A stretch of 64,000 nucleotides of DNA from Raillietiella orientalis. Taxonomy: Eukaryota. Positions 21,761 to 63,181 of this stretch are shown here, in pieces. Every line of letters begins with the position of its first letter. The stretch's first letter is position 1. The DNA lies in the NCBI GenBank assembly GCA_036172245.1, contig JAYWIR010000029.1:434001-498000 (forward strand), given 5' to 3'. The notes beneath the pieces were generated by a model, which made no database searches, was not told the DNA's origin, and saw only the letters and a program-made list of their open reading frames with translations. The position numbers and the translations under genes are program-made.

Positions 21761-23675
21761 ATGGCCATTTCAAAAACTACGAACACTTACAATCGTTTGA
21801 ACTGGGAAGAATCGGTATGTGTATAAACATGTTTTAATTAGTTTAATTTTTATAGGGAAAATGTTTCAAAAGTGCTGTTTTTGTATTGTAGCGTTAATTC
21901 ACTTATGTTTTAGGAGTTCCCAATTTTATGTCAGACATGTCTTGGAGATAATCCTTACATCAGAATGGTGAGGCTCCTTTTTTTTCTTATCGACTAGTAG
22001 CAATAATCTTAACTTAACAGTATCCTTGATATCCAGTGCCCAACTGTTTCACAAAAGAATTAGCTGTTAAGACTTTTTTGTATTGCTTAAACTTTTATGT
22101 ATTTACTGAAAATAGTCCATGTAAGCTACGCTTATGTGTTGTTACCAAATATGCAGTATTTCGTGTAATGAATTTGAGGAGGATATCTTACATGAGTTCA
22201 AGATTGAAGCCTCAAATGATGAATCATTTTATGCACCCTTACAGAAAAAAATTTTAATAATTGAACAGTAGAGCATTTTTTTGTTGTTTGAGCTGTAGTC
22301 AGCTCAAACTAACTAATTTTCATAGACTTGCAAAAATTTGTTTCGCTGTTTAAAGAAGTTGTAAATTTAGACAAAGGAAACTTATGGAAAAGAGTGCAAG
22401 GTCTGTACTCGTCCCTTCACCGTATTTCGTTGGTGTCCCGGTTCACGTATGCGATTTAAGAAGACTGAGATTTGTCAGACATGCAGCAGGAGTAAAAATG
22501 TGTGTCAGACATGTCTGTTGGATCTAGAATATGGATTACCCATACAAGTACGAGATTATGCCTTGAATGTAAAAGATGATCTTCCAAAATCAGATGTCAA
22601 CAGAGAGTATTTCATGCAAAACACAGAGCAGGAGGTACACTGATGAATCCTTAATTTTTAATTAAAGATCTCTATTAGTTGGCCAAAAATGATAGCACAG
22701 CACCAGGTGGTGCTGTAGGAAAAGCACAAGCGCCAAGTGATTTGCTTCTCAAATTAGCTAGAACTACTCCATATTATAAGCGTAATCGTCCACATATTTG
22801 TTCATTTTGGGTAAAAGGGGAATGTAAACGAGGAGAAGAATGCCCATATCGACATGAGAAGCCAACAGATCCGGATGATCCTCTCTCAGATCAGAATATT
22901 AAAGACAGGTATCAGTTTGCTAATACTGCTTTAACTAAATCTGTATGTGCAGATATTATGGGTTGAATGATCCTGTAGCAGATAAGCTGCTTCGTAGAGC
23001 AGCAGCCATGCCAAAATTAGAGCCTCCAGAAGATCCTTCCATTTCCACTTTGTATGTAGGCAATTTAGGAGAAAAGATTACGGAAAAAGAACTGAGGTAA
23101 ACTGTAAAGTTCGTTGCATTCAAAATTAAATAATACTTTTCAGAGATCACTTTTATCAATATGGAGAAATTCGTTCTGTCACGATGGTTCCCAAACAAGG
23201 CTGTGCCTTTGTACAGTATACAAGTCGAACTGCAGCTGAAGTAGCAGCAGAACGTACTTTTAATAAGTTAATCATGCAAGGCCGAAGATTAACTATCAAA
23301 TGGGGCAAATCCCAAGCAAAACAAGGAATTGCAGGCAAAGAAGATGAAGAACAATTGTATGATCCTGTGCCAGGATTACCAGGGGCATTGCCTCCCCCAC
23401 CCAAAGAACTTACAAATAATTTCTTTAATTTGGCACAGCCAATTGGAACGCTTCCAACTGTGCTGCCAACTACAGGAGTAATGTCTCCTGCATATATTTT
23501 AACACCACAACTTCAGGTTTTGCAGCCTGGTATTTTACCAGTTCAGTCCAATTATGTTGCTTCCCAACCCCCTGTGCCTGGAATAAATAGTAATGTTTCT
23601 CAACCAGTTAACAGGCCAGGAATCCACTATCCCTCTCAGGATCCCCAAAGAATGGGAGCAACTCAATCAAGATAA
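21761..23675 (+). CDS. RBM22: Pre-mRNA splicing factor RBM22; exons 21761-21814, 21914-21967, 22371-22634, 22679-22908, 22953-23096, 23144-23675
   Basis: [37 protein letters not shown]-terminus, [14 protein letters not shown] finger [25 protein letters not shown] (LYVGNL..CAFVQY) and C-terminal [11 protein letters not shown]. All junctions are GT-AG and phase-consistent. Confidence 0.98.
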
Positions 23676-23735: not shown

Positions 23736-26700
23736 CTATGAATGGGAGGATGCTAACAAGAGATGACCTGGAAGTTGCTCCTTACAAACAAATTTGTCAA
23801 TAAGCTCCTGCAAAGGAGCTAACTCCTTTTTTTCAATTAAATTAAACTCCTGCATGAAATGGGCAAACTTCAGCAATTTTGAACTAAAAATACAAACCTG
23901 AACAAAAAATACAAAATGTTTGAAAGATGTATTTAGATGAGCCTCTTCTCCTAATTGGACCACTTTATTAAAATGTTGGTGATAAATGTGAGCATACACA
24001 CGAAATAGGCGCTTTAAAATAGTTTTAGCTATGTTGAGGAAGTTTTTTGGGAAGCGAACTCCTGGGAATTGTTTATTACTCATCCTATTAAATAAGGCAT
24101 GACATACCGATTTTTGAAGGGAAAAGAGTCTGGTCATCTAACTGGTCTTGTGCCCATGTCATTAAGTAGTCTATATATTCTGGTGCAGAGCACTTTATTG
24201 GTTTCTTAACAGTTTGGCCATCAGCCCAATGATATTCATACTTTGGACCTGCTGACATGACTGAACACGTTTCTTTGGTACAAAATTCGGTAATCGTTCC
24301 ATATAGCATGTTAATTTGATTGTAGAAATCAACAGCTGCAAATAAAATATTGACGTATGCATAATCTGACTGGTAGGTTTCTACAGTATTAACAAACAAT
24401 GCAATATAATTTATTTCTTGTTACTGATTTCTAAGAGTTCATGCATAATAAAGCAAAAAACTGCTTGTGATTTTGAAACAAACACAGTTAGAAAACATAA
24501 CTTCTAAAAATAGTTACATACACAATGCCATTTAGTATTAATAATCAAAGCTCAACATACTGGATTTGCAAAATGAAAATCCAAACAATTTCAAAGATGG
24601 ACTTAGTGGAGGCAAAAAAAAAAAATGGTGCTTAAAGTTTTTTGGAATTTTACAGGCTATGTGGCACTTCACGCAGACTCACAAATTTCCGGGATAGTCA
24701 AAGATATTCTTCTCTAATGAAACAGCAGCAATATGAAGTTTGTAACCATGATAATGTCCGCACTTTAGAGGTCTTTTATATTATATATGATGATAACTTT
24801 TTTGTGTGTGGAACGCACATGTATTTCCTTCCCTAGTTTCCTAACACACTTTTGCCACAAAGAATTCGATCTCTTCAAAAACAATTTTCAATTTCAAGAC
24901 CTGAAGTGTACAACTGAAGCTGTTTTTGTTTTTCCAGAGTACACAAACACATGATTAATAAATGACCGAAATTGTATGCACACCTTACAAAATGAAAGCC
25001 TCAGATGATTCTAAGTTTGATGTTCTGACTTAACAGGGAAACATCCACCCCGCATTTTTTTTTTCCAAACATCTTTAATTTCCTTGATATTTTACATTTT
25101 TAAACTTAATTTCCAATTGTATCATCCCCTAAAACTATCCTGTAACGACAGATACCTGGGTATTCAACATTCAAATTGGAGAAATTATCAATCACCATTG
25201 TGATAGGCATTATTCATTTTTCATTGTAGGATACTAATTTTTATACAAAGGGGTTCAATCTACTGTATGTTTGTTTAGCAGTCTGTCACTTGTAATGTTA
25301 AATAATTGGCCATTCTCATTCATGCCTACCTAATATGAAATGATAAGTAAAATTAAATTTGTTAAAGGTAGGAAACGTTTACCTGCTTTCATTGTCATTT
25401 TGTTATCACAAATAATTCATAGTTATTGAATAAGATTTTAAAGATTTAGAAACTAAAATCATTTATACAGTTAGTGGGCTTCTGTTCCCATTGCTAAACT
25501 TGATATACAACTTCACAAACCTCTAAAGGTATCTGAATCACAAAAGTCAGTGCTTTTACACAATCATATCCACAACGTTCAGAATATTTATCATCAATCA
25601 TTGAGGAAAAGTTTTTGAGGAAATGCTTTTTATTTTCCTTAGTACAAACCGTGATTATGTAATTTTCGATTTCTGGTAGTCAACATATTTCTAAACAACT
25701 CCATATTTAGAATTAATCTGCCTATAACTCAGTTTATACCTTAATACACTCTGAGAAGTTCATGAAAACTTACCGACATATTCAAAACATTAATTCAGAA
25801 TCTTCTTTGAAATTAATTAATATAAAAACTGAGAAAGAACAGATAAAACAAATTTTTATAAATCCTTCAGTTTTCTTGCTTTATATCATTCTTGCTTTTC
25901 ATTGTCATGTTACATCACATGTTTCAAGCTGTTTCTTTAGAATAGGATGAAAACTGCAGAAAATAATAATGAGACACATGAAACCATGAGTGTCTGATAA
26001 AATTTCTAAGCCATTCAATAACAAGATGTGCGTTTATAAATGAATTCTTTATTACCAATAACCAATGCAATTAACACACCATGACAAAATAAATCTTGGA
26101 GTATAAATATGTTTGTGGTCCAGTACCTCGAAATTTTTTGTTACATACAAATGATAATTATGTCACTTTAAATCTTCATATAGGAACAAATACCATTAAT
26201 AATGGAATGTATGTGTACTTGTATAAAGTGATGCATGTTGAGGTATAATGCAAGTATTCTGAAGAAATACTATCAATAAGATATTTACTGAATAACACTA
26301 TATCTTGCATCAGATCATCACAACTGAGAATGAATCAAAATTTCAACTCTACAATAAATACTAACTGTTCACAGCCACCCATTCATTTAGGTCTTCTCCA
26401 TCGGGAAGCATAACAGCTAAGCGCAAGTTTCCTGATCCCAAAGTGGATGAAGCATGTTTCATTAAATCATACTGATGAGTTCCCTCAGGAATATTCTTCT
26501 TTGGCTTGAAAGTCTTGGAGATTCTATTGCCACTACAAGATTGATGTGCTTACGAATCAAATTTTAAAAGACATTACAAACCAAAATTTCCTATGCATTA
26601 TAAGATTTAAAATTCAACTCAACATGCCTTATCCATATTCCAATAAATAACTCGAAACAAAAGCATTAAAATAATAAATACAATAACAGATTAAAATCAA

Positions 26701-34989: not shown

Positions 34990-37900
34990 CATATTCTACG
35001 TCCGTTTTCCCTTTTTTGTTTCATCGAAGGCGTCGACGTTGCGAGTGGACTACCCGGACGAACGACCATCCACGTCCAGGCCCATGGATTTGGACAAATC
35101 AGGTCCCTCCAAGGAGGGAGTCATGGTGGGGTCAAGGGATGGTCAGGCGCAACCGCTGTCCAACGCGTCCGCGTCGTCGTCGTCACGTGCGACGTACGCG
35201 CAGGTCGCACCTGCCTCGAGCGGTTTTCCGGGCGTGCCCCCGGCACGAAAACGGACCCCGGTTAAACCCTCGGTATGAGTTTTAGACGACGAAGACCAAC
35301 CCATCCTCAGCATGGGGCTGGAGGCTAAACCGGTAGTTTTCAAAACATATCCCCTCAAACTGGCCAACGTGAAGGACATTTACATCGTCCTTCACCAGAA
35401 AAACGTCGATTTCGACGTCATCAAGGCGATTGTACCGTGCACGACCGGCTTCACGACTTACATGTCGCGCAAGCTGCTCATAGAAGCGCTGGGTGAGCAG
35501 GGAATCTCAATTAGTGGCCGCCTGCTACGCGGGATCGGCGAAACATCGACGACAACAGTCTTCCTGAAGGGGATCAACTTCAATACCACCACGACGATCC
35601 GCAAATTCCTATCCCAATATGGAGAAGTAACCCACCTGGAACTCCGAAATCAGATAGGCGAGATCTCCGGAGAGAAGTTCGCAAGGATACGGCTTTTTGA
35701 GGATGCCAAGTTACCGGGAGTGGCTTGCATTGATGCCTTCTCTCGAGCAGTCCTTTTCAGATACAGACAAACTTCCTTTCTGCGTGGGATGCGAGGTGTT
35801 CGGGCACCGTGTCGGGGCTTGCCCCAGGGCGCAGTGCCACCGGTGCGGCCAACAAGGCCACCTTTATTGGACGTGCACCCCGTCGATCATGTGCTACTTC
35901 TGCCGTCTGTCTGGCCACTCCAGGAAGAAATGCCGGCGATATGCGGTATGGAGAGATGTCTAGGGGTTGCCGCTAATTCCGACGGCGCCCGAGAAGGAAG
36001 GCGCGAAGAAGACGAAGGATCCTTTGACTGAGGAGACTGCCACGACGGTGGCAGAATTCACAGAGGTCAGGAGGAGGAAGGCAAAGAGAGAGATGAAGCA
36101 AGTAGCGCAACCAACCTCGGAAGAGCCGGCGGAAGTTGCCGCGCCAAACGAGGTGGCAAAAGTTGCTCTAACAACTGCAGAGTTGGCGGAAGTTGCCAGC
36201 ATGAAAGCAGAGCGTGCGCAGATCGAAGAAGTAATGAAGGATGCAACCACCAAGGAAGCACAGTCAGAAGCACCGGAACGCCATGTAACCATCTGCCGGG
36301 TGGAGATCTCCATCAACGAGCGCGTTCCGAACGATGAGCAGCGGACGCGCTGGAGGGCAGGATGCTGGAACTCAAGAAGAATTACACCAGCATGGCGCCC
36401 GCGGAGTTGCCTTGTGCAAGCCTGCCAAGTGCCTCCAAGTACAACGTACACCCAGTCGCTGACAGCACCGACTACATTGAGTCGGAGAGCGATATGGGTG
36501 ATTCACGAGTCGAAAAGAGGACTACGACAACGTCCCCCGAGAGACGCAAAACCAAGAAGAAAAGCAGGTACTCCTACTAGACCCGATGTCCACCTTCCTG
36601 TCTGCGGCCAGAAGCATCAAGATCGCATCCTGGAACGTGAACGGGTTGTGGAACCAAGCCAAACGATTCCTGGTCACGCGGACAATCGAATGACCATATC
36701 GTCCGCCTTCAGAAAACCCATGATCTAGAGCACCTAGAACTAGAACGACGCTGGACGTCCAGCTATTCCTCAGCGCGGGCCAGAATAGGACAAAAGGTGT
36801 GGCCATTCTCGTGAAAAACGAGATCGCGCACACCATTCTGGAAACCTTTTCTCCGTGGCCCGGCCGAATCGTTGGAATACGCATGTCCTGGTGCGAACCC
36901 GTGCAGCTGCTTCTGGTAAACGTGTACGGGCCACACCGAGGCAAGCATCGCTGTGCGGAAGCCATACAGGCTCTGCTGCGAACCAAGGCCTCGGCAAAAG
37001 ACAGAGTGATCGTCGTGGGAGACCTCAACATATTGGACATTATCACTCAGTCCAAGGACTCCTGAGGAAGAACGGCTTATCGTCAGCTGTCCGATGAGTT
37101 CGGCCTGCGATGGCTGACGGCGAGCAGCAAACCGATAAACCATGTCCTATACAGCCAAGGCATTGCGAACCGGGTGCAAGGATTCCGAGACGCACCATCT
37201 GCTCTTTCGGATCATCCCATGCTACGATTCACTTTACTCACGGAAAATCCTCAGAGTAAAGACAGGCACGCGGGCTGCGCTAATATGCATGCCCGCCTGG
37301 TTCGAAACGCATCCCTGTCATCAGGAGCTCATCGAAACGATACTGCGAAACACCACCATTCGCAGAGTAGCATACTGGGACAGGTTGAAGCGAACAATAC
37401 ATCTATTTAACAACTTACAGTTTTGTGACAGGAAGATGAAGACGGAGGCGCACCCTGATCTTAACAAACAAGATCTCTCGCTCTCGAAGTACCGGCCACA
37501 GTACGAGAACCGGTACGTGTTCAAGACCATCAAAGGGGAAGTCGGCGTGCTGGAAAAGAGAAACATCGCAACTGATGTCTTTTCCATCCGACACGAAGGC
37601 TTAGGCACAAGTCGGAGGAAATTGCGGAGACCTTCCGCCATCACTACGCCTCGCACTACCGACGACAAGATCTGCGTCCTAGGGAACAGGCTACCATCCT
37701 ACAATACCTACATCCGAGAGTCAAGAGGGAATACCAGGCCAAACTCGAAGAGACAATCACTGAAGAAGTAAATAGAGAGTTTGCAGGACTGCGTAAGGAT
37801 GTGGCGGCAGGCCCCGATACTGATCCCATCACGCACTGTCAGCTTTACCTGCACACCTACCTTCGCCTGTTCCACGAACTCACACTCGCAATCCAGGAAG

Positions 37901-38130
37901 AAGGAAGGCTCCCATCATCATTCCATGAAGGACGGATGAAACTGCTGCCGAAGGGAGGCGACCTGTTGGAAGCCACCCAATGGCGGCTATCACCATCCTC
38001 GACACGGATGCAAAGATCTGGGCCAACCGTTTAAGCATCACGATGTCATCCGTTGTCGCTCCTACGCAGACATGGGCGGTGTCCGGACGATGCATGTCTG
38101 CGAATGTGAAGCGTGCCCTGGCCACCATCG
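34990..38130 (+). mobile_element. Tx1/L1-clade non-LTR retrotransposon, 3'-truncated and decayed: ORF1 gag ~35086-36580, ORF2 APE-RT from 36586
   Basis: ORF1 has ATYAQVA, an RRM-like segment (VFLKGI..IRKFLSQYGEV) and three CCHC knuckles (CVGCEVFGH..C, CHRCGQQGH..C, CYFCRLSGH..C). ORF2 ATG starts 5 nt after the ORF1 stop and shows APE motifs SWNVNG, LQKTH, GVAILVK, NVYGP, VGDLN, SDH, then early RT motifs AAGPD and LLPKGGD..QWR. In-frame stops and frameshifts are present. The element is GC-rich compared with its flanks. Confidence 0.93.
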
Positions 38131-39965: not shown

Positions 39966-40715
39966 TTAAAATGTACTTTTTATTTCCATTAAAAAATTAT
40001 CATTGAGCTGTTTAACAAAATAATTCCGTGTTGCGATTTGAATTATATTTAAGAAATACTTATAATCTATACCCTTGAATTCAAAATTATTTTGAATAAG
40101 CAAATCACGTACATCTGAATTGCTTTCCGTTATAGCAGAAAAAATTCCATCATAATTCTTTTGTTTGCAGAATGCTACTGCTGAATTTAATAATTCGACG
40201 GCAATGTGATGCTTTTTGTATCTGTCTTGAATAGCAATCCATTTTAAACATGCTTTTCTATCATCATTTTTATATTTAACTATAACTACAAAGCCGACAA
40301 CTATTGTTTTTAACAGACATTCCTTAATTTTATATTCTTCATTCAGTTGCCTGTACACTGATGATGGTATTTCTGCAACAAGAATACATTCATTTGGGGA
40401 ATGTTCAACTTTGCAGCTCAAAAACTTTATCACTTCACAAGCTTCTGCATAACTCCATAAGTGACACAAGCACACAATGATGAAAACAACCACGAATATT
40501 ACTGGAATAATCATCACACACTTCAGTAGCGGCAATCCAAAAAATATGAATCCAATACCAACAAACAGAATGATCACTTCGTAAATTGTCTCTCGAATTA
40601 ACAAATAACAAAAAGAGTTAATTACTGTACTCATATAAAAATAGCGTAGAATTTCTAAACACTGCAGTATATCTTCTTTTCGAAAACTTCTTATACGATA
40701 TTCCCTGCAATCCAT
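39966..40715 (-). CDS. Intronless membrane-anchored GNAT N-acetyltransferase, Camello/NAT8-like (249 aa)
   Basis: Starts YRIRSFRKED, followed by a long hydrophobic segment, then a GNAT core VGFVVI..ACLKWIAIQDRYKKHHIAVELL..FCKQKNY..N..LL.NNF. This architecture is typical of the NAT8/Camello family. Confidence 0.8.
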   Translation of the reverse strand: MDCREYRIRSFRKEDILQCLEILRYFYMSTVINSFCYLLIRETIYEVIILFVGIGFIFFGLPLLKCVMIIPVIFVVVFIIVCLCHLWSYAEACEVIKFLSCKVEHSPNECILVAEIPSSVYRQLNEEYKIKECLLKTIVVGFVVIVKYKNDDRKACLKWIAIQDRYKKHHIAVELLNSAVAFCKQKNYDGIFSAITESNSDVRDLLIQNNFEFKGIDYKYFLNIIQIATRNYFVKQLNDNFLMEIKSTF

Positions 40716-42137
40716 TTCAACTCCAAACACGGAACACCGTTTACGTCCAATTTAAAAAAGGAATGTACATATACTCTTTCGTACCATACCAGTATCCAAA
40801 GCACGCGCAATCGAACTAATTGCTTGTGGAATCTAACATGCAAAAACGTGCCTATTGATGTAGCATCTTCTGCATAATGTTTACATTGCCATTTTTTTTC
40901 TGCCATAAATGTAAATCGTATTCAGATGTTTGGGATCACTTAGATTTCAGAATTCATAGGGTACCAAGCATAAAATTAAGTAAACAATACTTGAAGTTTA
41001 AAAGGATATTTTTTTTAAAAAAACTACAGGACAAGGAAGTTTATGAACATCGAATGATGGTTCAAACAAATTTTTTGACCATGTATCCTTCGAATAAACA
41101 ATTAAAAACTCGAACTTGTATACGCAAAAAAACTTTCCAGTGCTTTGGTTCTATGAACGCACACAAATGCTTGCACAACTTTCGTGGTGGAACTTGCTAC
41201 AATTTTCCCATTCAGTGCTGAATTCATAGCATTTGGATCTTTCAAGGCGTGTATCACACAATCTTTCCGAGGACATAAAAGGCGAATATAAGAAAAAAAA
41301 CAAATAATAAAAAACATAATGAAAATTCCATGATGGAAAATAAGGGATGTGATTTCTGCTGAGTTATCCTTTCTTTTCTTTTGTTCTTTCCATCAATATA
41401 CTAGAGAATTTTTATAGAGAATACACCAAGATGTGTACAACATATCAAGAAAAGCACTACAAAAATACAACAAAAAAAAAAAAACTTTCTGAAACAGCCT
41501 ATTACATTACAAGAAACTAAGTCCTTTACTTTCTATTTACTAGATTTCGGCAATCTAAGTTGTTTTTTTCTTCGATGTTCATTTTTTTTGAATTGTGTTT
41601 ATAGTGTTCTTTCTTAACTAAAAATGTCGAAAAGAAGGCACAATACATTCGAAATGCATAGTGTCTGACTTCACGGGTGACAGATTCTCACAAAACACAT
41701 TCCCTTGCTATGTCTGTTTACAAATATTTGCTAAAATGTGTGCAATATTTACTAAAAGATTATTTTAAACACAATAAAGTAGCCTTTTTTTGCTGGATGG
41801 AGTACTTCAAAGTCATATCTGACTTTTAGAATCTGAGATTACTCTTGAAACCACTAAGACTTAATTTGCAAAAGACGAACGGATAAGCTAGCTTAAAATT
41901 TGTATAACAAAGCATTATAATAGGAAAAATTTCAAGAAATGTATTTGTGGAATAAAACGGTCAAGCTAGAAGTAATACAAGCGTTTAGAAAACTAGATGG
42001 GGCTTATTTTAATTTAAACACCTTTATTTAGTATCAAGTCAAGCTTGGTTCCTTCATTTATGGACTCTTTTACATACAGAGTTTTCAAGATGCAAGTATT
42101 TTCTACTGGAGGTCTGACGTTACAACTTTCGGAAACC

Positions 42138-49474: not shown

Positions 49475-50599
49475 GTACTTGCAAACTTTCATATAATATT
49501 AATTCATAGTCTCACTGACTATTTAGTATAATTCCCTAATTTATTTTTATAATTAATTAAACATCATTTGACTTAAAAATATCATATGATACCTAGCTGC
49601 TTGTTGAATTTAGATCTAGCAGTTCAGTACCAGGGTTATGATTCAAACCAGCTGATCAATTACAGAAGAAAATTTATTATAGTAGGAACACAGGAAAAGT
49701 TATTATTTCCTACTTGTCAGTACAGGGTATCTCAAAGTAAGTGTTCCTGGAATCGAGAAAAATTCTTTCAAATAGATGTTTTGTTAGCATATTTGTTATT
49801 CATTATGTGACATACATAATTTCGGGTATTATGATGTGTAATGTAATCATTTGTCATAGGTTTTCTAATCTAAAGGATTAAACACTTGTAAACTTTTACA
49901 TTCTATTATGGTTTTTATGATTTGTAGGAGAAAATGAAGTTTTACTTATATACCAACTGCCTTCAATATTTTTTGAGGGAATGTAGAAAATATGACGATA
50001 TTTTTGTGCGTTAGATTCAGTAATGTATGATGCGATAACTGCTGCATTTGTTGTCATAGGTTTTAACAATCTATGTTGTTAAAACACATGTGGAATGCAT
50101 GCTCCTGCGATCAAGTCACTATCTGAACCCTATTCAAAATAGTGCTTACAAGAATGAATACTTTTGTGTGCTTATACCAAGGTTTTTCTAAATAAAATGA
50201 GAATTCGTTAAAAAAATCATTCATTAAAAGTTGGTATTAACCTTATTTATGCTTACAGTTTGTCTCATTTGGCCTTCAAATTTGCATTAGGAAATTACGA
50301 AGATGTGCAAATCATGAATTCATAATTCATGAATTTATCATTGATTTTCACATTGTACTCAGGACCCTCCATTTTCTGAAACATCGAATATTGGAACTAC
50401 CTTATCATGGGATTATTTAATCCAACATTGTTTTGGTAGATACAAATTAACTCATTTTGGAAACTTTGCTACAAAATTTTTGTTTTGATGTGTACATATA
50501 CAAATTTTGTGGACATCTTTGTTCTGATAAATATTAGGTTGTTAAAATTTCAAATCAGATGCATACTAACAAAGGAAGAGGGCGAGAAGTCAATTTTGA

Positions 50600-51470
50600 C
50601 CTGGCAGTATTAAAAATCTTACAATAAACTTAGTGGTTTTCGAAGGTAGTGCAAATGCCTGGGGGTGAAACAGAAGACATATATGCAGCAATGTGTATTT
50701 GAAGTTACATGCTAGAATTTCCATGTTCTGTCTTGTGGTTGCAAAGTTTGTCCTCACAGTTGAGCATTTTGTTTCCTCAGCATGTGAGGAAAAAGAAAAC
50801 GTTAGCAAGAAGTGATATACCAACCCTTCAGTTTTCCACACAAGACATACTGCATGAAAGGGTTTTATGTTTCTCCTGGTGGCAAATATTTTCACTGGTT
50901 TGTGTATATCATTGCTGCATTGATAACAGAGATCCTTAATTGCATTAAATGCACTCAAGTTGCATTTTGGAATTCATCAGAGCCTGTTAGATTGTAGCAG
51001 CAGTTTAGCAGGTTGACAAGTGCAGAGCTGGAAAAGAAGCCTTTTTTAACATTATCTTTGCAAGACAACATGGAAGCAACATACAGACTGTCCAAATTGC
51101 TACAAGAATTCTAAAAACTTATTACACTTGCAATTTTAGCATTGTGAAGATCTGTATTGCAAGCTGAAATCTCTGAAAACATGGGGACTTTTCAAAAACC
51201 CATACTCCTGGAGAAGCCATACTTCATTAGGATCTTTGATATTGTATGATTATCATGATACTTTTGAAGAATAAGCAAGGTATTCTGGCTTATTCTTCAA
51301 AAGTATAGGCAAAGTATTCTTATGTGGCTGTAGCAGGCAACTGGAAGAGCTGCTTCATGGTTCTACATTACATTGCATTTAGAAACTCATCTGTATTCTT
51401 TTTTAGCATTGCATTTACATAAAAGGTGCCTCCTTTGGCAAGCACGCTCACGAATTTAGTGAATAAAAAC
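50600..51470 (+). mobile_element. Possible decayed LINE 3' region
   Basis: CPNCYKNSKNLLHLQF*HC (~51085-51145) resembles the post-RT CCHC finger. AATAAA at ~51462. Confidence 0.3.
51258..51306. repeat. Perfect 19-bp hairpin with 11-nt loop
   Basis: ATACTTTTGAAGAATAAGC pairs with GCTTATTCTTCAAAAGTAT. Confidence 0.9.
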
Positions 51471-51494
51471 ATACTATGTTATTATATTCACAAG

Positions 51495-52276
51495 ACAAGA
51501 TAATGTCTTCGCAGCTCTTTAACACTGTTCCACGCCACCCTAGGGTGCGTGTGCTTCTTCAAGATAGGGGATACCCCGGGAAGGGGCCCACCCATGAATC
51601 CGGGAAGGACTCGGAGTCCGTTCCTCTCATGCCTGGGGAGGGGATCCCCGGAACGGAGATCACCTCTGTCATGGTTGTCTCCGGAGGGAACCCTCCATAT
51701 TCTCTCCGGAGGACCCCTCAGGGGTCCTCCGGAGACAAAAGAAGAAACCCACGTGAGAAAATTTCTCACCTCCGTGAGAAAAACCCACGACGCATTGTGC
51801 CGATCCATTTTTCTTCTCCGAAGGGAACCTGGAAAGGATTCCCTATCAGGAATTTCTTCCCGGAGGAAACCGCTCCTGTTTACTCCTCTGAAGAGAGCCC
51901 CGAAGGGCGCTTCCGAAATTCAGAAGGGTGCTGCTTCCCCGGAGGGAGGGGCACACTACTATGCACTCTGTAGAGGTGAAGATACACCTATTCCATCAGT
52001 ACGACGCGTAGGGTCTGTTCCTCCACAACCGGAGGGCAAAACTTACCACTACTTGAACCCTGGAAGGACCCGAAGGTCGACTACCATTGCTCCGGTCCTG
52101 ATGGGGGCATCCGGTGTGAACCGCTACCAGGGTCGCACTCGAAGGAATGGAGGCCAGCCAGCGTCATCTTGTGAGAAAGACCCACGACGCATTGTGCCGA
52201 TTCATTCATTTCGAAGCATTCGAATCCTCGACGCATGGTGCTATGCGCGGAGACCGTAACCACTCCGCCTCCGACG
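51495..52276 (-). mobile_element. tRNA-headed, dimeric, highly structured element (SINE-like or Pol III ncRNA)
   Basis: Minus strand begins GTCGGAGGCGGAGTGGTTA (A-box-like), has a CGCAT-AGCACC-ATGCG arm and GAGGA-TTCGAAT-GCTTC (T-arm/B-box-like). A 36-nt internal direct repeat matches 34/36. There are many hairpins, and similar AGATAAT(TT)GTCTT words at both flanks. Confidence 0.6.
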
Positions 52277-55200
52277 TTAGCCAGATAGATAATATTTGTC
52301 TGGTTCAGATAATTTGTCTTGGCTTTTAGAATTGGCAGAATAAGAACAAGACATATGTTTTGATCATTGTTCATAAGAAAATATGCATACTTCATTATAA
52401 ATTGCTGATTAGGAGGGTCTGGATTCGAAACTGATGATTGGATAAAAGTGATCTGTTATAGGCGAAGTCCGATGTTACACGATTCGTCTCGGTGAACGAC
52501 TTTAAGTATTAGAAACTCAATTGCCTCAATTTCGTAACCTATGACTCTGCCGAGTACTTTGCTGGTGTTTTTTTTTATTGATATTTCATAATTTACTAAT
52601 GTAACCTGAGTCATTCAAAATTAATTAAAAAGTCTAAAAAGATAAATTTCGATAATTACCATGCGTTTCAGCGTTATATGTTTTACTTAAATTTCCTAAA
52701 TTATGTCGTTCTATGTTGTCAAAAGAAAAACAAGTAGACCAACTTTTCCGCTGAATCTTCATTGCTTACTACTAACTACTGTTCCCACGGCACTATTCCA
52801 CACAACTGCAAGGTGGAGTTCATTTTCGAAATCATTCCTGTATTTGGAAGATTAACTTGTGCCTTGTTGAAGTTCATTTGCGGTTCTTATTCTCTTATGT
52901 TCTCTTATAATTACATCTACAAATTGGTTATCCACCTTCCAAATGTTAAAACTTAGCTTTTATTTACAGATCTTTGTTGCAAAGTGTCTATTCGGTATTA
53001 CTAATTCTTTTAAACTCGTCATTCTACCGACTATCCGAGCAAGAAAATTTTATAACTATATGCAGTTGGTAAAATGTTTTCATATTACCTTTTTTATGGC
53101 ATCTCATTTAAAGGAAATCATGCATCTAAGTTTCCAACAAAAAGGAAAGGAATTCAATTTTTAGAGTTAATCTCTTTTGCAGTGATAAAAATTATGAGAT
53201 TATGAGTTATAGGAATCCTATACCAATGATACAGTGTTGATAACAGTGGAAGTTTGGGGCTAGCTAGAACTGTAATGACCAAGAAAGGCTTTGGTGTGCA
53301 TGAAGATGTAAGCATCACATCAAGGGATATGATATTCCAGTAGTGATTATAAAAAAGATTCAATAAAAAAAGCAGTTAAACCCTTCAAATTCCTGCGTTT
53401 TCTACCCAAGCATAAAATTATTCACCAATGCAAAGTTTTACAGTATGAAGAAATCAGCACATTAGGTGGAAGCACCTTTTTTGCCATTGCAGGCTTCTTT
53501 TGACACAAAGAAATGGTAAGCTTTCTTGAAAAGAGTTTCTAAATGGTTATTCCACGTTGATATGAACATGTCACTTCTGGTATTCCTTTTCTCTTTTAAT
53601 GGCACTTACTGTGTTCTTCGAGTTTTATAAAATTCCTTTTCTAGAAACACTCTCTTTAATAATAGCAGTAATAGCATACTACATTTTGTTTTTCCCTGGA
53701 CAAAACTATGGACTACTTGTTGATCGAGGCATTGCAAAGTAAATATGGAAACAGTGGAAAGCTGAAAATGACTTGATCTTACCTCAGTTTATAGGTTTTC
53801 ATATATGTGTGTCTTGTTACTTAAGTCGTTATTGGAAAAAAATCTATGCTGATGAAATAGTTCTAGTCCAATACAGTTTGACTGAATATAATGAAAATTA
53901 AACAGCATTTCACTTGAAATCTATTTTCCGATGACCGAGTTCCTGATGCAGTTTGTAAGGCACCGAAGAACACGACACGTTTAGGAAACTGAAAATGAAG
54001 GAGAGATTTGGATAAAATTTTTAAATTTACCGTATTAAGTATTAATTAAGATTACTGTATTACAAGATGACTTTCAAACTCTCCACAAAGAATGCTAAGG
54101 GTCAAACAAGAAAGCGGAATAATTTTCACAATTTTTTTTTAAAAAAGCAATCACTTGCAAAAAATCATATTTCCAGGTAACTCTTCGGGTTTTCGTAGTG
54201 CTGCGTTGTTTATTACGATACCAATTCCTAAACTGAATAATAATCAGTGATTGAAACTGGGAAAGAGATTTCAAAATGAAAACCGAGAAGATTGAGGCAA
54301 ATCTTTTAAAGAATAGCGAGTGGAAAAACAGTTATTTATAGATGAAAACGAAGCTTTGCAGATTGAATGTAATTCTTTAGGATTCTTTCTGCGATAGCTG
54401 TCGATGGGTAATTTGTGAGGAAATGGAAACGTTTTTCGATTACAGGGTATTGTGACTTTTAGTAACTGGTCATGTGTTGTGTGCTTCTGGAGTCACGAGG
54501 ATGAAAGTGACGATATCCAGAGACACGGCCTGAATTATCTTGGGAAAAAAAAAAAAAAAAAAAGGGGAATTCAAACCGATCGAGTAAAATGCCCTAATTT
54601 TTCCTATTAAGCATGATTGATATCACTCATGCTGAATCCTTTAAGTGTATTGCTTCTGTAAAGAACGTGCTGCTTACGATTTGATCGTGAGGGTGGACCA
54701 CGGTACGTATTCTGCAGTGACAAACCTGGAGGAGCATATGCTGGAGATCCGTTTGCTCAACGTGCCTGGTTTGTTGGAAATGGGTGAATTCTGTTTGTTG
54801 CATACAAGCAAGGCGGGTAAATTTCACCATTCCAATTTCAATATCTGGTGCGATTTGGAACTTGCCGATGTTTCAGAGGTGTTTTCATAATCATGTTACG
54901 AATTTACAATCAAATCTAGAACCCAAATAATAATTTGTTTCTCATCAAGGTACTGACAACTTTAACAGAAAGAAAATCATGTGTCGCCGAATATCTATGA
55001 AATTGTTTTACTGGAAAAATTTTTTTAGCACATGCTTTGTGGAGTAATAGTGGAGCATAGTAACCACACATCCAATCGTGCATCCGTGTCCCAAATAACG
55101 TTGAGGCTGTGACTGGTTTATTGAATGCATTTTTAATTATTTGTCAATACCGACAACGGACTTTACCATTTGTTTATAATGATAAAAAGAAAACAGTCTT

Positions 55201-55291: not shown

Positions 55292-56967
55292 ATGGAAAGT
55301 CATTGTTCTCTATCACTATGGGAAGGTAAGAATAAAATTCTGTTCGGTTGCATTTCTCTCTAGATGTTTAGAAAAATGTAGTTGCTTCAGTTGTATCAGT
55401 AGTTAGGTTTCTTATAAAACCCTCACATGGGTGAAGAAAATGTTGGATTTTGACAGTTACTTTATATGAAAATTGTTATTCATAATATTCAGTAATAAAT
55501 GATTCCATTTTTGACGCAAACCTTGTTGTGGTAAAAACTTTCTCAAGGTTTTTGTTAATTCCTTTCAGATTTGAGAAAACAGGCACGCCATCTCGAGAAT
55601 GAGATAGATATTAAATTAAGCGCTTTTAGTAAACTAGGTGCTGGAATCACATCATCCTTTAATTCTTCTGGGTGAGTGAAATCTGGTTTGTGTAATGTAA
55701 ACATTGTTTTCGAATAGTCTATAAATATCAAATATGGAACCTATCCTGATAATTTGAAGAATTTGTAAAGTAAATGTAATTATCAGAATTTTTTCCCTTT
55801 ACTATGAATGAATCTTTCAAAACGCAAGCACAAAATTTATTGTATGCAGCTCTAATGTGCGGTTTACGTATCTATATAATTTGCAATTATTGTTGCTGTC
55901 TTGTAGTCCAGAATTGGTTCCACTTTTGAACACAGATCAAATGCTGGACTCAATGACTGCAGATTTGGAGCAGCTTTTTTCAAAAGTAAAATGATAAAAA
56001 GCATTATTAACATATTTCTAATTTTTATTTTTCCTTGGAAGTTGTCTAATGTTAATGAGAAGTTAGCTGAATTTGGTGCCAGTGCATCGCCTACAGCTAC
56101 CATTGTGCACACTATTCAGAGGCATCGAGACATATTACAGGAATATCAGCATGAATTTAGAACTACAAAAACAAATATTCAGCAGAAGCATGATAGAGAA
56201 GCTTTACTTAATGCTGCTAGCAAAAACATGGAGTAAGTGCTTTGCAATAAACTTTGGAGTGTATGATTATTAAATAATTTGCAATGCAGTTCAACAAAAG
56301 CATTGGATCTTTCTTGATGTATAATACAAAGTGATCAATAAGAGCATGCTCTTAATCCTTTTTGATAGAGAACTAGGACCTATTTATCTATTTCAGTTCA
56401 TACAAATCTGTTGGACTAAACAAACGGGCTGATTTGCTGATGAAGGAAAATGATCATCTTAAAAAGTAAGACTCATTTGTTGATCATGAAGTATGTTAGT
56501 GTGCGTTTGAGATTTCCTGGTGCTTTCTTTGTGTAGAGTGCTTCATAATCCAGACATGTATTTCTTTCAACTATTCCATTACGTATAATTCTTTATCTCT
56601 CTTCATTTCAGAATACTGCATTGAGAAAAACAGGTATTTGTATTACTAAATGATGAAGTTTTTATGAGAGATTTTCATGATGTATATCTGCTTAAACTTA
56701 TCAAATTCATGACATGAAATATTTTGTAGTTCCAGTCGTATGATTGATGAGCAGATCAATATTGCAATGGAAACTAAGGATCATTTATACAATCAGCGGG
56801 AAACGTTCAAGTTTATTCAGATCAGAATGAACAATTTAACAAGTCGTTTTCCTGTTATCAACAGCCTTCTGCACAGGATTGGAATTAAGAAGCGCAAAGA
56901 CTCTTTAATCATGGGATGTGTGATTGGCATGTGCTGTGTTCTTTTGTTAGGATATGTGCTATTGTGA
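55292..56967 (+). CDS. GOSR1: Golgi SNARE GOS28; exons 55292-55325, 55569-55671, 55907-55985, 56042-56232, 56397-56465, 56730-56967
   Basis: WE|DLRKQARHLENEIDIKL..HTIQRHRDILQEYQHEF..KENDHL..RFPVINSLLHRIGIKKRKDSLIMG plus a C-terminal transmembrane segment. Junctions are phase-consistent GT-AG. Confidence 0.96.
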
Positions 56968-57109
56968 AGGGATGTGGGCAGGATGATTCTGGTCAACATA
57001 AATATAATATTTTCCCTATTAGATGTTTGGCATTTCTGTTTTACTACATGCATCTTCTCAAAGAAGGTTTTTGAATAAGTGATACGATGATATAGGTTTA
57101 TTTGAAAAC

Positions 57110-58903
57110 ATGGAAGATGAATCTCAATCCTTTTTGGAGAAACAAGCCAAAAAAGGTATGAGAAGAGTGGATCCATCTAATAATACATGTATATATTGTA
57201 GAAGACATTCAGAACATTGTTGCCATCTTGTGCTATATTGTTGTGGTTGTCGTAGTAGGCATTCCTATGTGGTGGTATACCACTTATGTGTACAGAGCTA
57301 ATCTTCCTTATCTGGAAATTAACCAGCTGTCAAAAAGCAACATTATTTTTCCTATCACTATACAGGTGATAGGTGAAAGTTTGCCTGATCTCAGCAAAAT
57401 GAGGAAGGTTACTGCAAAGTTACCATCGAATGGTTAGTTCTTTTACAAAAAAATCATATTAATCAAGAGCACTAGTTCAGTTGGCTCTCAACAGTCGCAT
57501 TTACACACCTGAAGAATATAGCTTATTGCAACAATCCCATTCACTTTTTGAATTGGATGAGCATCTTCATTTACTTCCTGGCAACTCTAATGTTAGCACT
57601 CTTGCACTGTGGATTGTGCCAACAAAATTGTATTGGGGTCTCTTGGGACCACATGGAAGCCCTCCGTTTGTAGCAGGAAAATACAGAGGGATCTTTGTTG
57701 ATGGTCACCAGAGTAAGGAAAAGCAGCAAATTGCCTAGTACTTTCCACAGATTTAGCTGAAAGTGCTCTGCTTCTCAATATCTTGGATCTACTAGGTTGG
57801 GCAGATCTTTTCGATCTGAAACGAAATATTCAGCGTATAGATGCTCAGCCTCGTATAGATATCTTGTTTTCTTTATTGGTTCCAGAACCTAGGAATGAAA
57901 TGCTACAGTGGAATATAGCAGATGCAATCGATAGTGAGTGGAAGTTTGCTTATAAGAAGTTTTATGCACAAGTTTCTTTCCCTAGAATACTGGAAACAAG
58001 CATTACTGAAATTGCGTCCTTTAGTGGAAATAGATTTGAAATCACAGATACTTTTTTTTGCTAAGCTTCCTCTTGAACCATTATTCGATGTTTCAAGTCA
58101 TACTTACCAACTACCTTTAGATCAGTTGCCGCATTTATTAAAACCCATAGAAAGGCGTTTATCATCCCATATATCTGATCATCCTCAGTTGCATTTTTTA
58201 CTTTACTTGGTTCCAGCAGAACAACCTTTGAAAGTGATTGATTCTCCTTTCAATGCTTTTGTGTATTCACGTTGGGGCGGAATGCTGTTGTATAATAAGC
58301 AAATCAATCAGAGTATGGATATGGGACATATTATGTCGGTTTTTGGAAGCCAACTTAGGATCCTTCTGGGTTTAGAAAGTTCAGAGTATCAGCAAATAAA
58401 TGTTGGTTTGGGTGGAGTAGCTGATTGGGAATGGGATCTTCTTTGTAGACTCAGAATATTAGACAATCTTCTTAGGACACAACATACCTTGCAGGTATCT
58501 AAAGTTAAATCTTGTGATTAAACTAATCTTATAGTTGTAGTCTTTGGCTTCTTTATTAGCAAAAATAAGCAATATTGTCATAAGTGATAAAGTTGCTCAA
58601 AATGTGCATGCAGCCTTACAGGCACATGAAAAAAGTTTAAAACACCTTGAGGAAAACCAAATGATCGCTGCTCTTTCTAAAGCACAGCAAGCATTTCAGG
58701 CTTCTGAGGCTGCATTCTTTGATCCTAGCATGTTGTCACTGCTCTATTTTCCAGATGATCAAAAGTGAGTATGGAATGAAAGGTATAAACACACAAAAGC
58801 CAATTTCAGGTATGCCATTTATGTGCCATTGTTTGTACCTGTTAGCATTCCCATATTACTGTCTGCAAAAAAGCTGTATCAGAAGCATCTTGTTACAGGT
58901 TAA
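57110..58903 (+). CDS. PIGS: GPI transamidase subunit PIG-S; exons 57110-57155, 57202-57432, 57476-57712, 57751-57933, 57986-58494, 58541-58764, 58810-58903
   Basis: N-terminal TM followed by GIPMWWYTTYVYRANLP; AFVYSRWGG; QLRILLG; C-terminal [31 protein letters not shown]. All six introns are GT-AG, 38-52 nt. Confidence 0.96.
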
Positions 58904-61219: not shown

Positions 61220-62245
61220 CTCACGCATCGTACATCTTCGATGACGCGCCCGGAAGACACCGACGTACTACCGGAAGCTGTATTCCTTCACACGGTTTGA
61301 TTTCGATTTTCCCCCAAGTCCCACAAGGGGTGGCATAAATTTATTTTTTCTTTTAACATTCACACTACATACTCATTCATTCACTTTTATTCCAAAATCA
61401 CTTGTGCCTTCTTAAAATTTCACTAACCTGGAGTTACAACACTTGGGTTCTGCATTAGGGTGGCTGGGAGTTGATTGGGCCTGAGCGTCATCTTCAATCC
61501 TTGTCAGGATGTGCCGATAGGTCCAGGCCTGCACTCTACCACAGTTCCTTATGTCGATCTCTTTCTGGATAATCCCTTTCAAAATTTCCATGAGAGATGC
61601 GGCCATTCTGTGTTCTTCACTTTCCACCATCTTATGAGGATGGCGGTGATGCATAGGGCAACGGCCATCCTAACCATGGGGTTGTAACAGGGGACGTTTC
61701 CGATTCCCTGGAACATCTTGTCTAGGACTTCCGTTGGCGAGTAGTTTTGCAGTCCTATGACCCTTTTCAGGGTCTTCCAGTCTTGATGCATTGTGGGGCA
61801 GGTCAAGACGTGAGGTCTTGTGTCCACATCCTTGCAAGCTCTGCAGTCCTCATCCTGTCTTGCTCCTGTAAAATACTTTAATCTGGACCCGCTCAGGATT
61901 CCTCCGTGATAAAACATCAGGAGGTTATCCTGGGTGTCCGGCGGTAGGTCACTCCAGATTGTGGTTCCGACCGCCAGGGGATTGACAAAGTCAGCCACGT
62001 GGCGATGGACAGCTTCCTGGAGGGCAGTGGTGTCTTCATCTTCTCTTATGATGCAGCATAGATTTTTCTTGGTTACCCTAGACCACGCGTGGTTGTTGTG
62101 GTTTTTCCACACTTCGCGGATCTTGCAGGTGAACTTTCCCGTCATCATGTCTATGTATCGACGTATGCGGGAATGGTGATATCCACTCCGCTCCCACTGT
62201 TGAATTCTGTGTAGGGTGACTCTGGGCCGTTGGTAGATCCAGCTC
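61220..62245 (-). mobile_element. 3' part of a Tx1/L1-like LINE ORF2 (zinc finger and tail) plus downstream sequence
   Basis: CRACKDVDTRPHVLTC is a CCHC of the type found after LINE RT domains. The tail continues across a frameshift to a stop at 61412. AATAAA words follow, then a GC-rich segment similar to 34997-35045. Confidence 0.8.
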
Positions 62246-63181
62246 TACAATGTGATTTCGATTCAGCCAGGGAATTGATTGCAGTTTGCTTTAGAAATCA
62301 GCCGCTGAGTATCAGCAGCCACATTTTATAAAAGTAAAAAAAGTGGCACATTTTTCTTGTATCAGTGTCGCGAATGTTACATTTCTGGAATCCTTAGACG
62401 TAAAGAGTATTTTTCGTCTGGTCTCTTTGACTTTGCATGAATATGAATTTTTTAACACATAATCATCAGTGAAATGCAGCAGATCTATCAATAAATAACC
62501 ATTTCCTCTATTTCCTTCGAAACAGTGACCAATGCTAAAGCAAATACAATTTGAGACCGCAGCATCTACAAATGGTTAGGCCGGTCGTAATTCATCTGAT
62601 TTTCTGGATGAATCATTGGCGAACCGGCGTTTGCGAATTTATAGAGATTGCACATTCTGAATTAGAATCAAACTTGAATTTCGGATTCGAGCACGTTTTA
62701 CATCGTAAAGTTAGCTCCAATCATAAAAGACGTATTCAAGCATGCCCCACTTGTTCACCCTAATGCCTACGTAATTCCATATTGAAACGGAGAAGGAAGC
62801 ATGAATAACAAGCAAATTTTGAATTCTTAAGAAATGGGTGGCAAACAGAATCAAAGGAAGAAATAATATTCAACTGAAGTTGTACAATGGCATTCCACTC
62901 TCAGATTATGCAAGATATATGCTTCATACGATAACTTATGAAAGCAACTTTTGGATTGCTGTTTCAATTTTATCGGTAAACCTCTTGAAACGATCCACTG
63001 CTGATTCAATAAAAAAGAAAAAAAAAAACAGCATTAAGCTGTTGCAAACATTTGAATATCATGAGGGCAGGTACAACAAATAGATGGAAAGAATGGCAAT
63101 ATGCACTCTGGATTTGTTTCTATGTGATAAATTCATTTTCTTCCTCCTATACGAAAGATTGACAGCGCCGGAGTCTTCGCA

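Follow-up and report, generated by a model that had tools for sequence, protein, structure and literature searches.

The locus raises a simple question: does a GC-rich island, whose minus strand carries a cluster of UNCG-type hairpins behind a tRNA-like head, encode an RNA with a fold maintained by selection, as the first-pass annotation had proposed, or are the hairpins to be explained otherwise? The island was analyzed within its window, the whole 64-kb stretch of DNA; the coordinates of all features are collected in Table 1.

As originally described, the island is GC-rich within AT-rich DNA: 56.0% GC at 51504-52276, against 36.6% for the window. The flanks score 35.9% (50500-51500) and 32.8% (52300-53300), which gives a sharp GC step at the island edges. 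The CpG observed/expected ratio is 0.81, versus 0.16 in the left flank; it is 0.26-0.39 in the host exons of the window and 0.59-1.14 in its other GC-rich islands, one of which, located at 35-38 kb and encoding a LINE-type endonuclease/exonuclease/phosphatase domain, reaches 1.01. Non-depleted CpG continues beyond the island, up to about 52550. Hairpins are much denser in the island (18.1 per kb) than in five other GC-rich islands (2.7-5.7). The island is located between plus-strand genes, or in an intron of one: the last exon of a plus-strand SNARE gene is found downstream, at 56713-56964, and a PIG-S gene starts near 57.2 kb, on the same strand. Elsewhere in the window, a Helitron remnant guessed at 16-19 kb was discarded, having no Pfam support.

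Table 1. Features of the island and of its boundaries. Positions are those of the window; a dot indicates a feature given without strand.
Feature	Position	Strand	Remarks
Candidate insertion, whole GC-rich, CpG-retaining island, ~780 nt	51504-52283	-	TG 52283-52282 to CA 51505-51504
Candidate target-site duplication, 5' copy	52284-52288	-	CTATC
Candidate target-site duplication, 3' copy	51499-51503	-	TTATC, 4/5 match
A-box-like motif	52260-52270	-	AGGCGGAGTGG, 10/11 of consensus
T-arm-like hairpin	52213-52229	-	GAGGA-TTCGAAT-GCTTC, 4/5 pairs, one G-U; holds B-box-like GATTCGAATGC (52226-52216); pairing read from sequence, standard tRNA numbering
36-nt direct repeat, copy 1	52171-52206	-	repeat comparison
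36-nt direct repeat, copy 2	51774-51809	-	34/36 (94%) identical, 397 nt from copy 1
c(UUCG)g hairpin	52067-52078	-	GACC-TTCG-GGTC
First T4 run	52038-52041	-	~240 nt from head
c(UCCG)g hairpin	51936-51947	-	TCCC-TCCG-GGGA
c(UUCG)g hairpin	51897-51908	-	GCCC-TTCG-GGGC
c(UCCG)g hairpin	51857-51868	-	TTCC-TCCG-GGAA
Palindrome-rich module	51504-51800	.	sole segment with fold-energy excess, equal on both strands
8-bp hairpin	51762-51781	.	TTTCTCAC-GGAG-GTGAGAAA
Near-perfect palindrome	51700-51738	.	19-nt arms 51700-51718 / 51720-51738, 95% complementary; CTCCGGAG in each arm
Third copy of TTGTCTCCGGAGG	51675-51687	.	direct to 51700-51712, inverted to 51726-51738
251-codon open frame across island	51504-52259	+	judged non-coding

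UNCG loops closed by a C-G pair are exceptionally stable in RNA, and the four perfect c(UUCG)g and c(UCCG)g loops reported earlier are all present on the minus strand. Their number is far above expectation: dinucleotide shuffles contain on average 0.03 perfect 4-bp c(UYCG)g hairpins, and none of 2000 reaches four, while no such hairpin is found on the plus strand of the island. When stems of at least 3 bp are considered, the window contains nine c(UYCG)g hairpins on both strands, five of them within the island (4 minus, 1 plus). The CTYCGG motif is also enriched on the minus strand, with 9 sites versus 0.93 expected (0 of 2000 shuffles reach 9). The further claim, that the loops read as UNCG only on the strand of the tRNA-like head, is weaker than it was made: the perfect loops split 4:0, CTYCGG is found 9 times on the minus and 4 times on the plus strand, and, since three sites common to both strands correspond to the palindrome CTCCGGAG, the non-palindromic ones split 6:1. 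For each of the two splits, 4:0 and 6:1, the two-sided binomial p is about 0.125. Stacking of the CTYCGG sites, read by eye, reveals an extended GGTTYCC...GGRRA context common to four of them. Several of the hairpins repeat a single unit in direct orientation, and would thus owe their common orientation to descent: that their loops have the UYCG sequence on the same strand may not require an RNA fold to be selected.

Against 71 paired shuffles, the whole island has a fold z-score of -3.9 (minus strand) or -5.0 (plus strand), and the energy advantage of the minus strand, -12 kcal/mol, is smaller than the -19.7 +/- 6.4 predicted from composition. Only at 51504-51800 is an excess found, with z-scores of -5.02 and -4.89 for the two strands. 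The head segment (52038-52283; -0.50 and -0.83) and the middle region (51801-52037; -1.47 and -1.44), where all but one of the four UYCG hairpins are located, fold like shuffles (200 for each strand of each segment). Segment 51504-51800 features 5 palindromic octamers versus 1.05 expected, a number reached by 1 of 1000 shuffles; it also includes the long stem noted near 51703-51735, which was found as a 19-nt inverted repeat. Being confined to this segment and equal on both strands, the excess is due to palindromes at the DNA level, and the hairpins would be a trait of the DNA itself. The idea that the RNA fold is under selection is not supported here, and the very comparison that had been suggested as a check, fold energy of both strands against shuffles, shows an excess equal or larger on the plus strand. 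In known RNAs, such as rRNA, cUNCGg loops cap helices of larger conserved folds. The island resembles them in its four perfect C-G-closed UUCG/UCCG loops on 4-bp stems, but the surroundings of these loops fold no better than shuffles and do not match any family: Rfam models, run on the 64-kb window, produce no match at gathering score and no ribozyme, in line with the earlier failure to fit a known one. The 15 sub-threshold matches obtained at E <= 10 are mostly of microRNA and snoRNA models to the palindrome, the best one scoring 22.8 bits against a cut-off of 74.

Of the tRNA-like head, the two box-like motifs were confirmed. Relative to the A-box consensus TRGCNNAGTGG, a good match is found precisely where the island begins on its minus strand (5' edge), followed, 44 nt apart, by a B-box-like motif matching at 9 of 11 positions (from 52226) and included in a T-arm-like hairpin. 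No other such pair exists on either strand of the window, and the spacing is canonical for the Pol III type; given the position of the pair at the very edge, a SINE-like origin stays plausible. Models of whole tRNAs, on the other hand, do not see the head: the Rfam tRNA model finds no match in a 131-nt search at E <= 10, and ARAGORN reports nothing there with default or relaxed settings, the latter giving 0.79 (ps80) and 3.99 (ps70) hits for each shuffled sequence. Neither an acceptor stem nor a canonical anticodon arm can be read in the head. Besides the T4 run closest to the head, minus-strand T runs start at 51783 (T5), 51761 (T4) and 51740 (T4), for a total of four runs of at least 4, two of which are followed by C. 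A second head-like string at about 52551 was dropped, as the 600 nt upstream resemble the island no more than shuffles do, on either strand.

The 36-nt block described as repeated within the island is present at both places, with the identity originally reported. The window contains exactly two occurrences of its 21-nt core, a number of matches found in none of 100 shuffles. Local alignment of the island halves defines a block of about 40 nt (36-42 nt), with a score of 63, while shuffles average 19.6 and do not exceed 27 (n = 200). As the halves have only this block in common, the element is not dimeric, contrary to the first-pass annotation. The second shared motif, said to change its stem while keeping the pairing, is 20/26 identical without gaps, and scores 22 when aligned by these rules, a value not beyond what shuffles reach; the two hairpins, moreover, pair different columns (1-12 and 1-13), and the stem differences are therefore not compensatory changes.

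At the island boundaries, the minus strand starts with TG and ends with CA, next to a candidate 5-bp target-site duplication. This combination is found in 79 of 5000 shuffled boundary zones, and an A/B pair anywhere in 63 of 3000 shuffled islands, but both signals (p about 0.02 each) emerged after several end models had been tried, so that their real weight is lower. The best longer flank duplication aligns with a score of 20, about 55 nt outside the head, and is equalled or bettered in 27 of 1000 shuffles. No A-rich, simple-repeat or tandem tail is found at either end of the island, no AATAAA is seen within it, and no terminal inverted repeats or wider repeat structure are found around it within 46-58 kb. 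In the 64-kb window there is no second copy of the island, no partner LTR or internal region, and no similarity of the island to LINE pieces or to any other sequence.

The island was compared with the closest known systems. Tenets of tRNA-derived SINEs (SINE2) are recognizable in the A/B-box-like motifs at tRNA spacing and in the T-arm-like hairpin at the 5' end, as well as in the non-coding body with its recurring ~40-nt block; two of the four T runs are followed by C, and mollusc SINEs, according to PMC4758252, tolerate internal T4-5 followed by C. The same paper reports a 39-bp block common to otherwise different SINEs, and lists Vhc, MESC and Snail as invertebrate SINE superfamilies featuring a short conserved central block (PMC4758252). 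In the island, however, the block is found twice, versus once in each of two families, and the likeness to Vhc, MESC and Snail is one of description (PMC4758252). Differences from SINE2 elements also include the absence of a tail or A-rich end and of a clear target duplication, and a head missed by tRNA models. A SINE, moreover, is expected to be short and free of internal terminators: a length of 100-700 bp is quoted in PMC10886601, while the island is ~780 nt long and carries four T runs of at least 4 on the would-be sense strand. A solo LTR would be consistent with the TG...CA termini, the 4/5 match of the 5-bp duplication, the length of ~780 nt, the non-coding sequence and the sharp edges, and does not need a tail; the points of difference are that the vicinity lacks a partner LTR and an internal region, as well as a primer-binding site and a polypurine tract, and that no polyadenylation signal is seen.

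Features of both classes coexist in TRIMp3 elements (Helenus, Ajax, Cassandra), described in PMC10886601 as LTR retrotransposons of miniature size whose LTRs each contain a Pol III promoter of tRNA or 5S origin; they have been reported in several phyla of animals. Helenus elements range from 311 to 1263 bp, and most of their LTRs feature a box A TRGCY...YGG and a box B GGTTC (PMC10886601). The island has tRNA-like A and B boxes inside TG...CA ends, and its size falls in the Helenus range. Yet two tRNA-bearing LTRs are required (PMC10886601), while the only direct repeat of the island is the 36-42-nt block and there is one A/B pair; its boxes, AGGCG...TGG and GATTC, also depart from those of Helenus. 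The TRIMp3 layout, a primer-binding site and a polypurine tract enclosed by two such LTRs, is not found in the island.

Four other explanations were weighed. A protein-coding exon, or a young orphan gene, on the plus strand would account for the 251-codon frame, which spans the whole island and whose length, in any of the six frames, is equalled in only 5 of 2000 dinucleotide shuffles. The frame, however, shows no codon-position periodicity (chi2 3.85, p 0.70), while all five of the real coding segments examined in the window do (p from 0.004 to 5e-7). The two copies of the 36-nt repeat lie out of frame with each other (397 = 3 x 132 + 1). None of the seven island reading frames tested has a Pfam hit (one sub-threshold match, E 0.025), and the ESM recognition of the frame is 856, where 2300 is reached by 91 in 100 real proteins. 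No homologues were found among proteins of near or shorter length, nor among 1.84 billion representatives, and none of the pattern matches of the plus frame, 125 in metagenome contigs and 8 in viral contigs, was upheld by tblastn. The island is non-coding, and the coding explanation, already largely refuted, is scarcely tenable. A non-coding foreign fragment, such as the hairpin-rich terminus or UTR of an integrated virus, or a bacterial transfer, would fit a composition alien to the host and the dense GC-rich hairpins and palindromes. Against it, blastn of the island versus phage and plasmid records gives no match; the exact 21-nt repeat core is absent from metagenome, viral and prokaryote genome contigs, as is the exact 23-nt head string from viral contigs; the tblastn-checked scans of the plus frame are empty, and no adjacent viral coding remnant is present among the frames scanned. 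A foreign origin is thus very improbable. Full-text literature searches, similarly, returned no match to sequence strings from the block and the head.

Host regulatory DNA is a less remote alternative, although still an unlikely one: the island would be an unmethylated promoter, enhancer or insulator made of palindromic protein-binding sites (CTCCGGAG, CACGTG, GGATCC-type). The retention of CpG amid strongly depleted surroundings, extending past the island itself, the octamer enrichment and the SNARE gene downstream all point in this direction. The sharp GC boundaries do not, nor does the presence of at least one clear retroelement among the other GC-rich, CpG-retaining islands of the window, and a scan of 40 plus-strand frames of at least 44 aa, out of 123 listed of at least 28 aa, did not reveal a first exon of the downstream gene beside the island. 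The original proposal, a structured ncRNA or a new Pol III SINE family with cUYCGg hairpins lined up along its body and selected on the minus-strand RNA, is favored by the hairpin excess on one strand, by the known stability of the loops and by the A/B pair at the 5' edge of that same strand. It has to face a folding excess which does not favor the minus strand, a head and a hairpin-rich middle that fold like shuffles, an orientation bias compatible with chance and with descent from one repeated motif, the lack of Rfam matches and of relatives in the collections searched, and four internal T runs, even though T4-5 followed by C is tolerated in mollusc SINEs (PMC4758252). In light of these data it appears quite improbable.

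Probably, instead, a GC-rich, non-coding mobile element inserted once into host DNA that is AT-rich and CpG-depleted, and the island is what is left of it. This reading is suggested by the sharp GC step, the CpG ratio, the hairpin density and the repeated CTYCGG motif in a non-coding sequence, together with the A/B pair at the edge, the TG...CA ends with their near-duplication and the strand-symmetric excess of structure. Against it stand the unusual length of the open frame and the single copy in 64 kb, without a relative in the collections searched, repetitiveness being the defining property of a mobile element. As to its class, a SINE-like retroposon and a solo LTR are about equally plausible. 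In the SINE-like form, the minus strand would be the sense strand, starting with a decayed tRNA-related head provided with Pol III A and B boxes; the missing tail, the lack of a significant long duplication, the length, the T runs and the blindness of tRNA models to the head argue against it. In the solo-LTR form, the TG...CA ends and the 5-bp target duplication would mark the insertion; here the adverse points are the 4/5 match, the absence from the window of a partner LTR or internal region, and the lack of a visible AATAAA. Within the element, short motifs centred on CCGG (GGTTYCCTYCGGRRA, TTGTCTCCGGAGG, CTCCGGAG) may have been multiplied, presumably by duplication, in both direct and inverted orientation. 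Should the A and B boxes still be active, transcription by Pol III would most likely end with the T4 run at 52041-52038, and the resulting RNA of about 240 nt is predicted to fold no better than chance.

A bolder version, in which the island is either a domesticated ncRNA gene or a Pol III retroposon of unusual length, tRNA-headed and lineage-specific, with cUYCGg mini-hairpins kept because they stabilize the RNA or let a partner reverse transcriptase recognize it, is distinctly improbable. Compensatory changes in the UYCG stems of genome-wide copies, if true, would indicate a SINE body under structural selection. More generally, UNCG-type loops may cluster on one strand through the internal duplication of a short motif, and such a cluster is no sign of selection on an RNA fold unless a strand-specific folding excess or covariation is shown. 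If the mobile-element reading is true, the island would be one more unclassified interspersed repeat from a poorly sampled animal lineage, unsurprising in itself, but useful for repeat annotation.

The window comes from the nuclear DNA of an animal and has a GC content of 36.6%; its coding segments, called by Pfam, are listed in the table. All statements on the island, the GC-rich, hairpin-dense stretch whose sense strand would be the minus one if it is SINE-like, derive from one locus. The island (51504-52276) has a GC content of 56.0%, its flanks being at 35.9% and 32.8%. Its observed/expected CpG ratio is 0.81, against 0.16-0.39 in host exons and flanks, where CpG is strongly depleted: the exons range from 0.26 to 0.39, while 50500-51500 is at 0.16, and CpG is absent throughout 50801-51444, about 640 nt adjoining the island. 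Other GC-rich islands of the window also retain CpG (0.59-1.14), one of them being a LINE-type retroelement. The pattern fits germline methylation of gene bodies combined with young or unmethylated repeats.

The LINE-type fragment (35000-38000; GC 54.5%, CpG ratio 1.01) contains, besides its endonuclease domain, several long open frames in which Pfam finds no match. Four more islands (200-950, 2000-3000, 8200-8800, 61500-62300), with 50-51% GC and frames of 146-243 codons lacking Pfam matches, show no similarity to the studied one and are probably other repeat fragments. A 49-nt near-perfect hairpin (51258-51306; 22-nt arms, 95% complementary, 5-nt loop) is located some 200 nt away from the island, in AT-rich flanking DNA. 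Upstream, at 52420-52551, a small CpG cluster in AT-rich surroundings (9 CpG, 52426-52551) carries on the minus strand a B-box-like GTTTCGAATCC, located by eye near 52431-52421; its similarity to the island is not significant. The V-SNARE_C last exon and the PIG-S start belong to plus-strand host genes only about 200 nt apart (region 56713-58521).

Coding segments called in the window, and segments of the island with their folding z scores (200 shuffles each)
Feature	Position	Strand	Basis	z minus	z plus
RRM exon	23130-23675	+	Pfam		
Mob1/phocein exons	23736-24420	-	Pfam		
Endonuclease/exonuclease/phosphatase domain, LINE-type element	36724-37065	+	Pfam		
GNAT acetyltransferase	39966-40751	-	Pfam		
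V-SNARE_C last exon	56713-56964	+	Pfam		
PIG-S, start (from 57162)	~57162-57434	+	Pfam		
Island, palindrome-rich end	51504-51800		Shuffles	-5.02	-4.89
Island, middle (three UYCG hairpins out of four)	51801-52037		Shuffles	-1.47	-1.44
Island, head up to first T run	52038-52283		Shuffles	-0.50	-0.83

Much of the anatomy described by the first-pass annotation is borne out. A 36-nt direct repeat is present at 51774-51809 and 52171-52206 (34 of 36 positions identical), and the window contains the 21-nt core of this repeat at exactly two places, two matches being found in none of 100 shuffles. The minus strand features four perfect hairpins with 4-bp stems and C-G-closed UUCG or UCCG loops, starting at 52078, 51947, 51908 and 51868; dinucleotide shuffles of the island average 0.03, and none of 2000 reaches four. 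When stems of at least 3 bp are admitted, five of the nine UYCG-type hairpins found on both strands of the whole window fall in the island. Tetraloop hairpins with any loop and a stem of at least 4 bp number 14, versus 3.7 expected (0 of 2000 shuffles), with a density of 18.1 per kb; in five other GC-rich islands of the window the density is 2.7-5.7 per kb. The long stem is likewise found, as a palindrome at 51700-51738 with two 19-nt arms, 95% complementary.

The description of the element as dimeric fails: local alignment of the two halves returns just a block of about 40 nt (score 63; shuffle mean 19.6, maximum 27, n=200). A second common motif, 52079-52054 versus 51620-51595, is 20/26 identical when read ungapped, but scores 22 under the same scheme, within the shuffle range. 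Its hairpins, once taken to keep pairing while changing sequence, use different alignment columns (1-12 versus 1-13), and are thus two distinct hairpins at a similar place rather than a compensatory change. Strand specificity of the loops is weaker than first described: the perfect loops split 4:0 in favor of the minus strand, and the core motif CTYCGG is found nine times there and four on the plus strand, but the palindrome CTCCGGAG, common to both strands, contributes three sites to each, leaving 6:1, and both splits have a two-sided binomial p of about 0.125. When the sites are stacked, an extended context, GGTTYCC-TYCGG-RRA, is common to four of the nine minus-strand ones; these four resemble direct duplicates of a single short unit, whose orientation would then be held in common by descent.

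A plus-strand open frame of 251 codons (51504-52259) covers the island, and a frame of such length appears, in any of six frames, in just 5 of 2000 shuffles. A protein-coding reading was rejected. Codon-position periodicity in base composition is absent (chi2 3.85, p 0.70), while all five of the window's real coding segments compared with it show one (p 0.004 to 5e-7). The copies of the 36-nt repeat, being spaced by 397, sit in different reading frames. Pfam finds nothing in the frame (seven frames scanned gave a single sub-threshold match, on another one), a word-seeded search gives no match among near-length or shorter proteins, and HMMER gives none at E<=0.001 against 1.84 billion representatives. 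ESM recognition is 856, a value of 2300 being reached by 91 of 100 real proteins. The frame is taken as non-coding.

At the minus-strand 5' edge, the A-box-like AGGCGGAGTGG (52270-52260) shares 10 of its 11 positions with the A-box consensus TRGCNNAGTGG, and the B-box-like GATTCGAATGC (52226-52216) matches GGTTCGANNCC at 9 of 11, with a spacing of 44 nt, as between tRNA positions 8 and 52. With at most 1 and 2 mismatches and a spacing of 25-65 nt, neither strand of the 64 kb has another such pair; 63 of 3000 shuffles of the island contain a pair anywhere. The B box lies inside a T-arm-like hairpin, GAGGA-TTCGAAT-GCTTC, read with four of five pairs and the canonical seven-base loop, and tRNA position 1 would map to 52277, which is six bases inward of the GC step. 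Further observations speak against a tRNA fold: on inspection, the head has neither acceptor stem nor canonical anticodon arm, ARAGORN predicts no tRNA in the window (relaxed matches, elsewhere in the island, are at noise level, shuffles giving 0.79 at ps80 and 3.99 at ps70), and an Rfam search restricted to 131 nt has no match at E<=10. The head may plausibly be a relic of a Pol III-type promoter.

Selection on a strand-specific RNA fold, also proposed earlier, does not survive the comparison of strands named in advance. Each strand of the whole island is more stably folded than its shuffles, with z -3.7 on the minus strand and -4.45 on the plus (20 shuffles per strand), or -3.9 and -5.0 with 71 paired shuffles; the minus-strand advantage of -12.0 kcal/mol compares with a larger one, -19.7 +/- 6.4, predicted from composition alone. 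The excess is confined to the palindrome-rich end and equal on both strands, indicating a symmetric property of the DNA rather than of a strand-specific RNA; this end contains five palindromic octamers versus 1.05 expected (1 of 1000 shuffles). Rfam reports no family at gathering score over the window, and at E<=10 only sub-threshold matches, for the most part to microRNA and snoRNA models and located on the palindrome. Minus-strand T runs of at least four begin at 52041, 51783, 51761 and 51740; since mollusc SINEs, as reported in PMC4758252, tolerate an internal T4-5 followed by C, and C follows two of the four runs, the T-run argument is only moderate. It is very improbable that the island really is a structured Pol III RNA or SINE.

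The island is sharply bordered in composition, retains CpG, lacks a coding signal and contains short internal repeats. All of this fits a mobile-element insertion, and the island is rather likely to be an unclassified non-coding relic of one, SINE-like or a solo LTR. A SINE-like origin is suggested by the A/B boxes at the extreme 5' edge; a solo LTR by TG at 52283 and CA at 51505-51504, flush with CTATC and TTATC, a combination of TG...CA and flanking duplication seen in 79 of 5000 shuffled boundary zones. Each signal has p ~0.02, both having been picked after several end models were tried. Neither a long LINE-type duplication nor terminal inverted repeats were found around the island. TRIMp3/Helenus elements, as described in PMC10886601, carry tRNA-like sequence in both LTRs; the island, in contrast, has a direct repeat of just 36-42 nt and one A/B pair only, which excludes a full element of this kind as there described. 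The recurring block of about 40 nt recalls, by description rather than sequence, the short central domains common to otherwise different invertebrate SINEs in PMC4758252. No relative was found by exact patterns in metagenome, viral and prokaryote contigs, by back-translated patterns in metagenome and viral contigs, in phage and plasmid records, or in full-text literature; these collections include neither a eukaryotic genome nor a repeat database, and the blank results therefore say little on novelty.

The sequence anatomy of the island is real and statistically unusual. Its interest, otherwise low, would increase if genome-wide copies show covariation.
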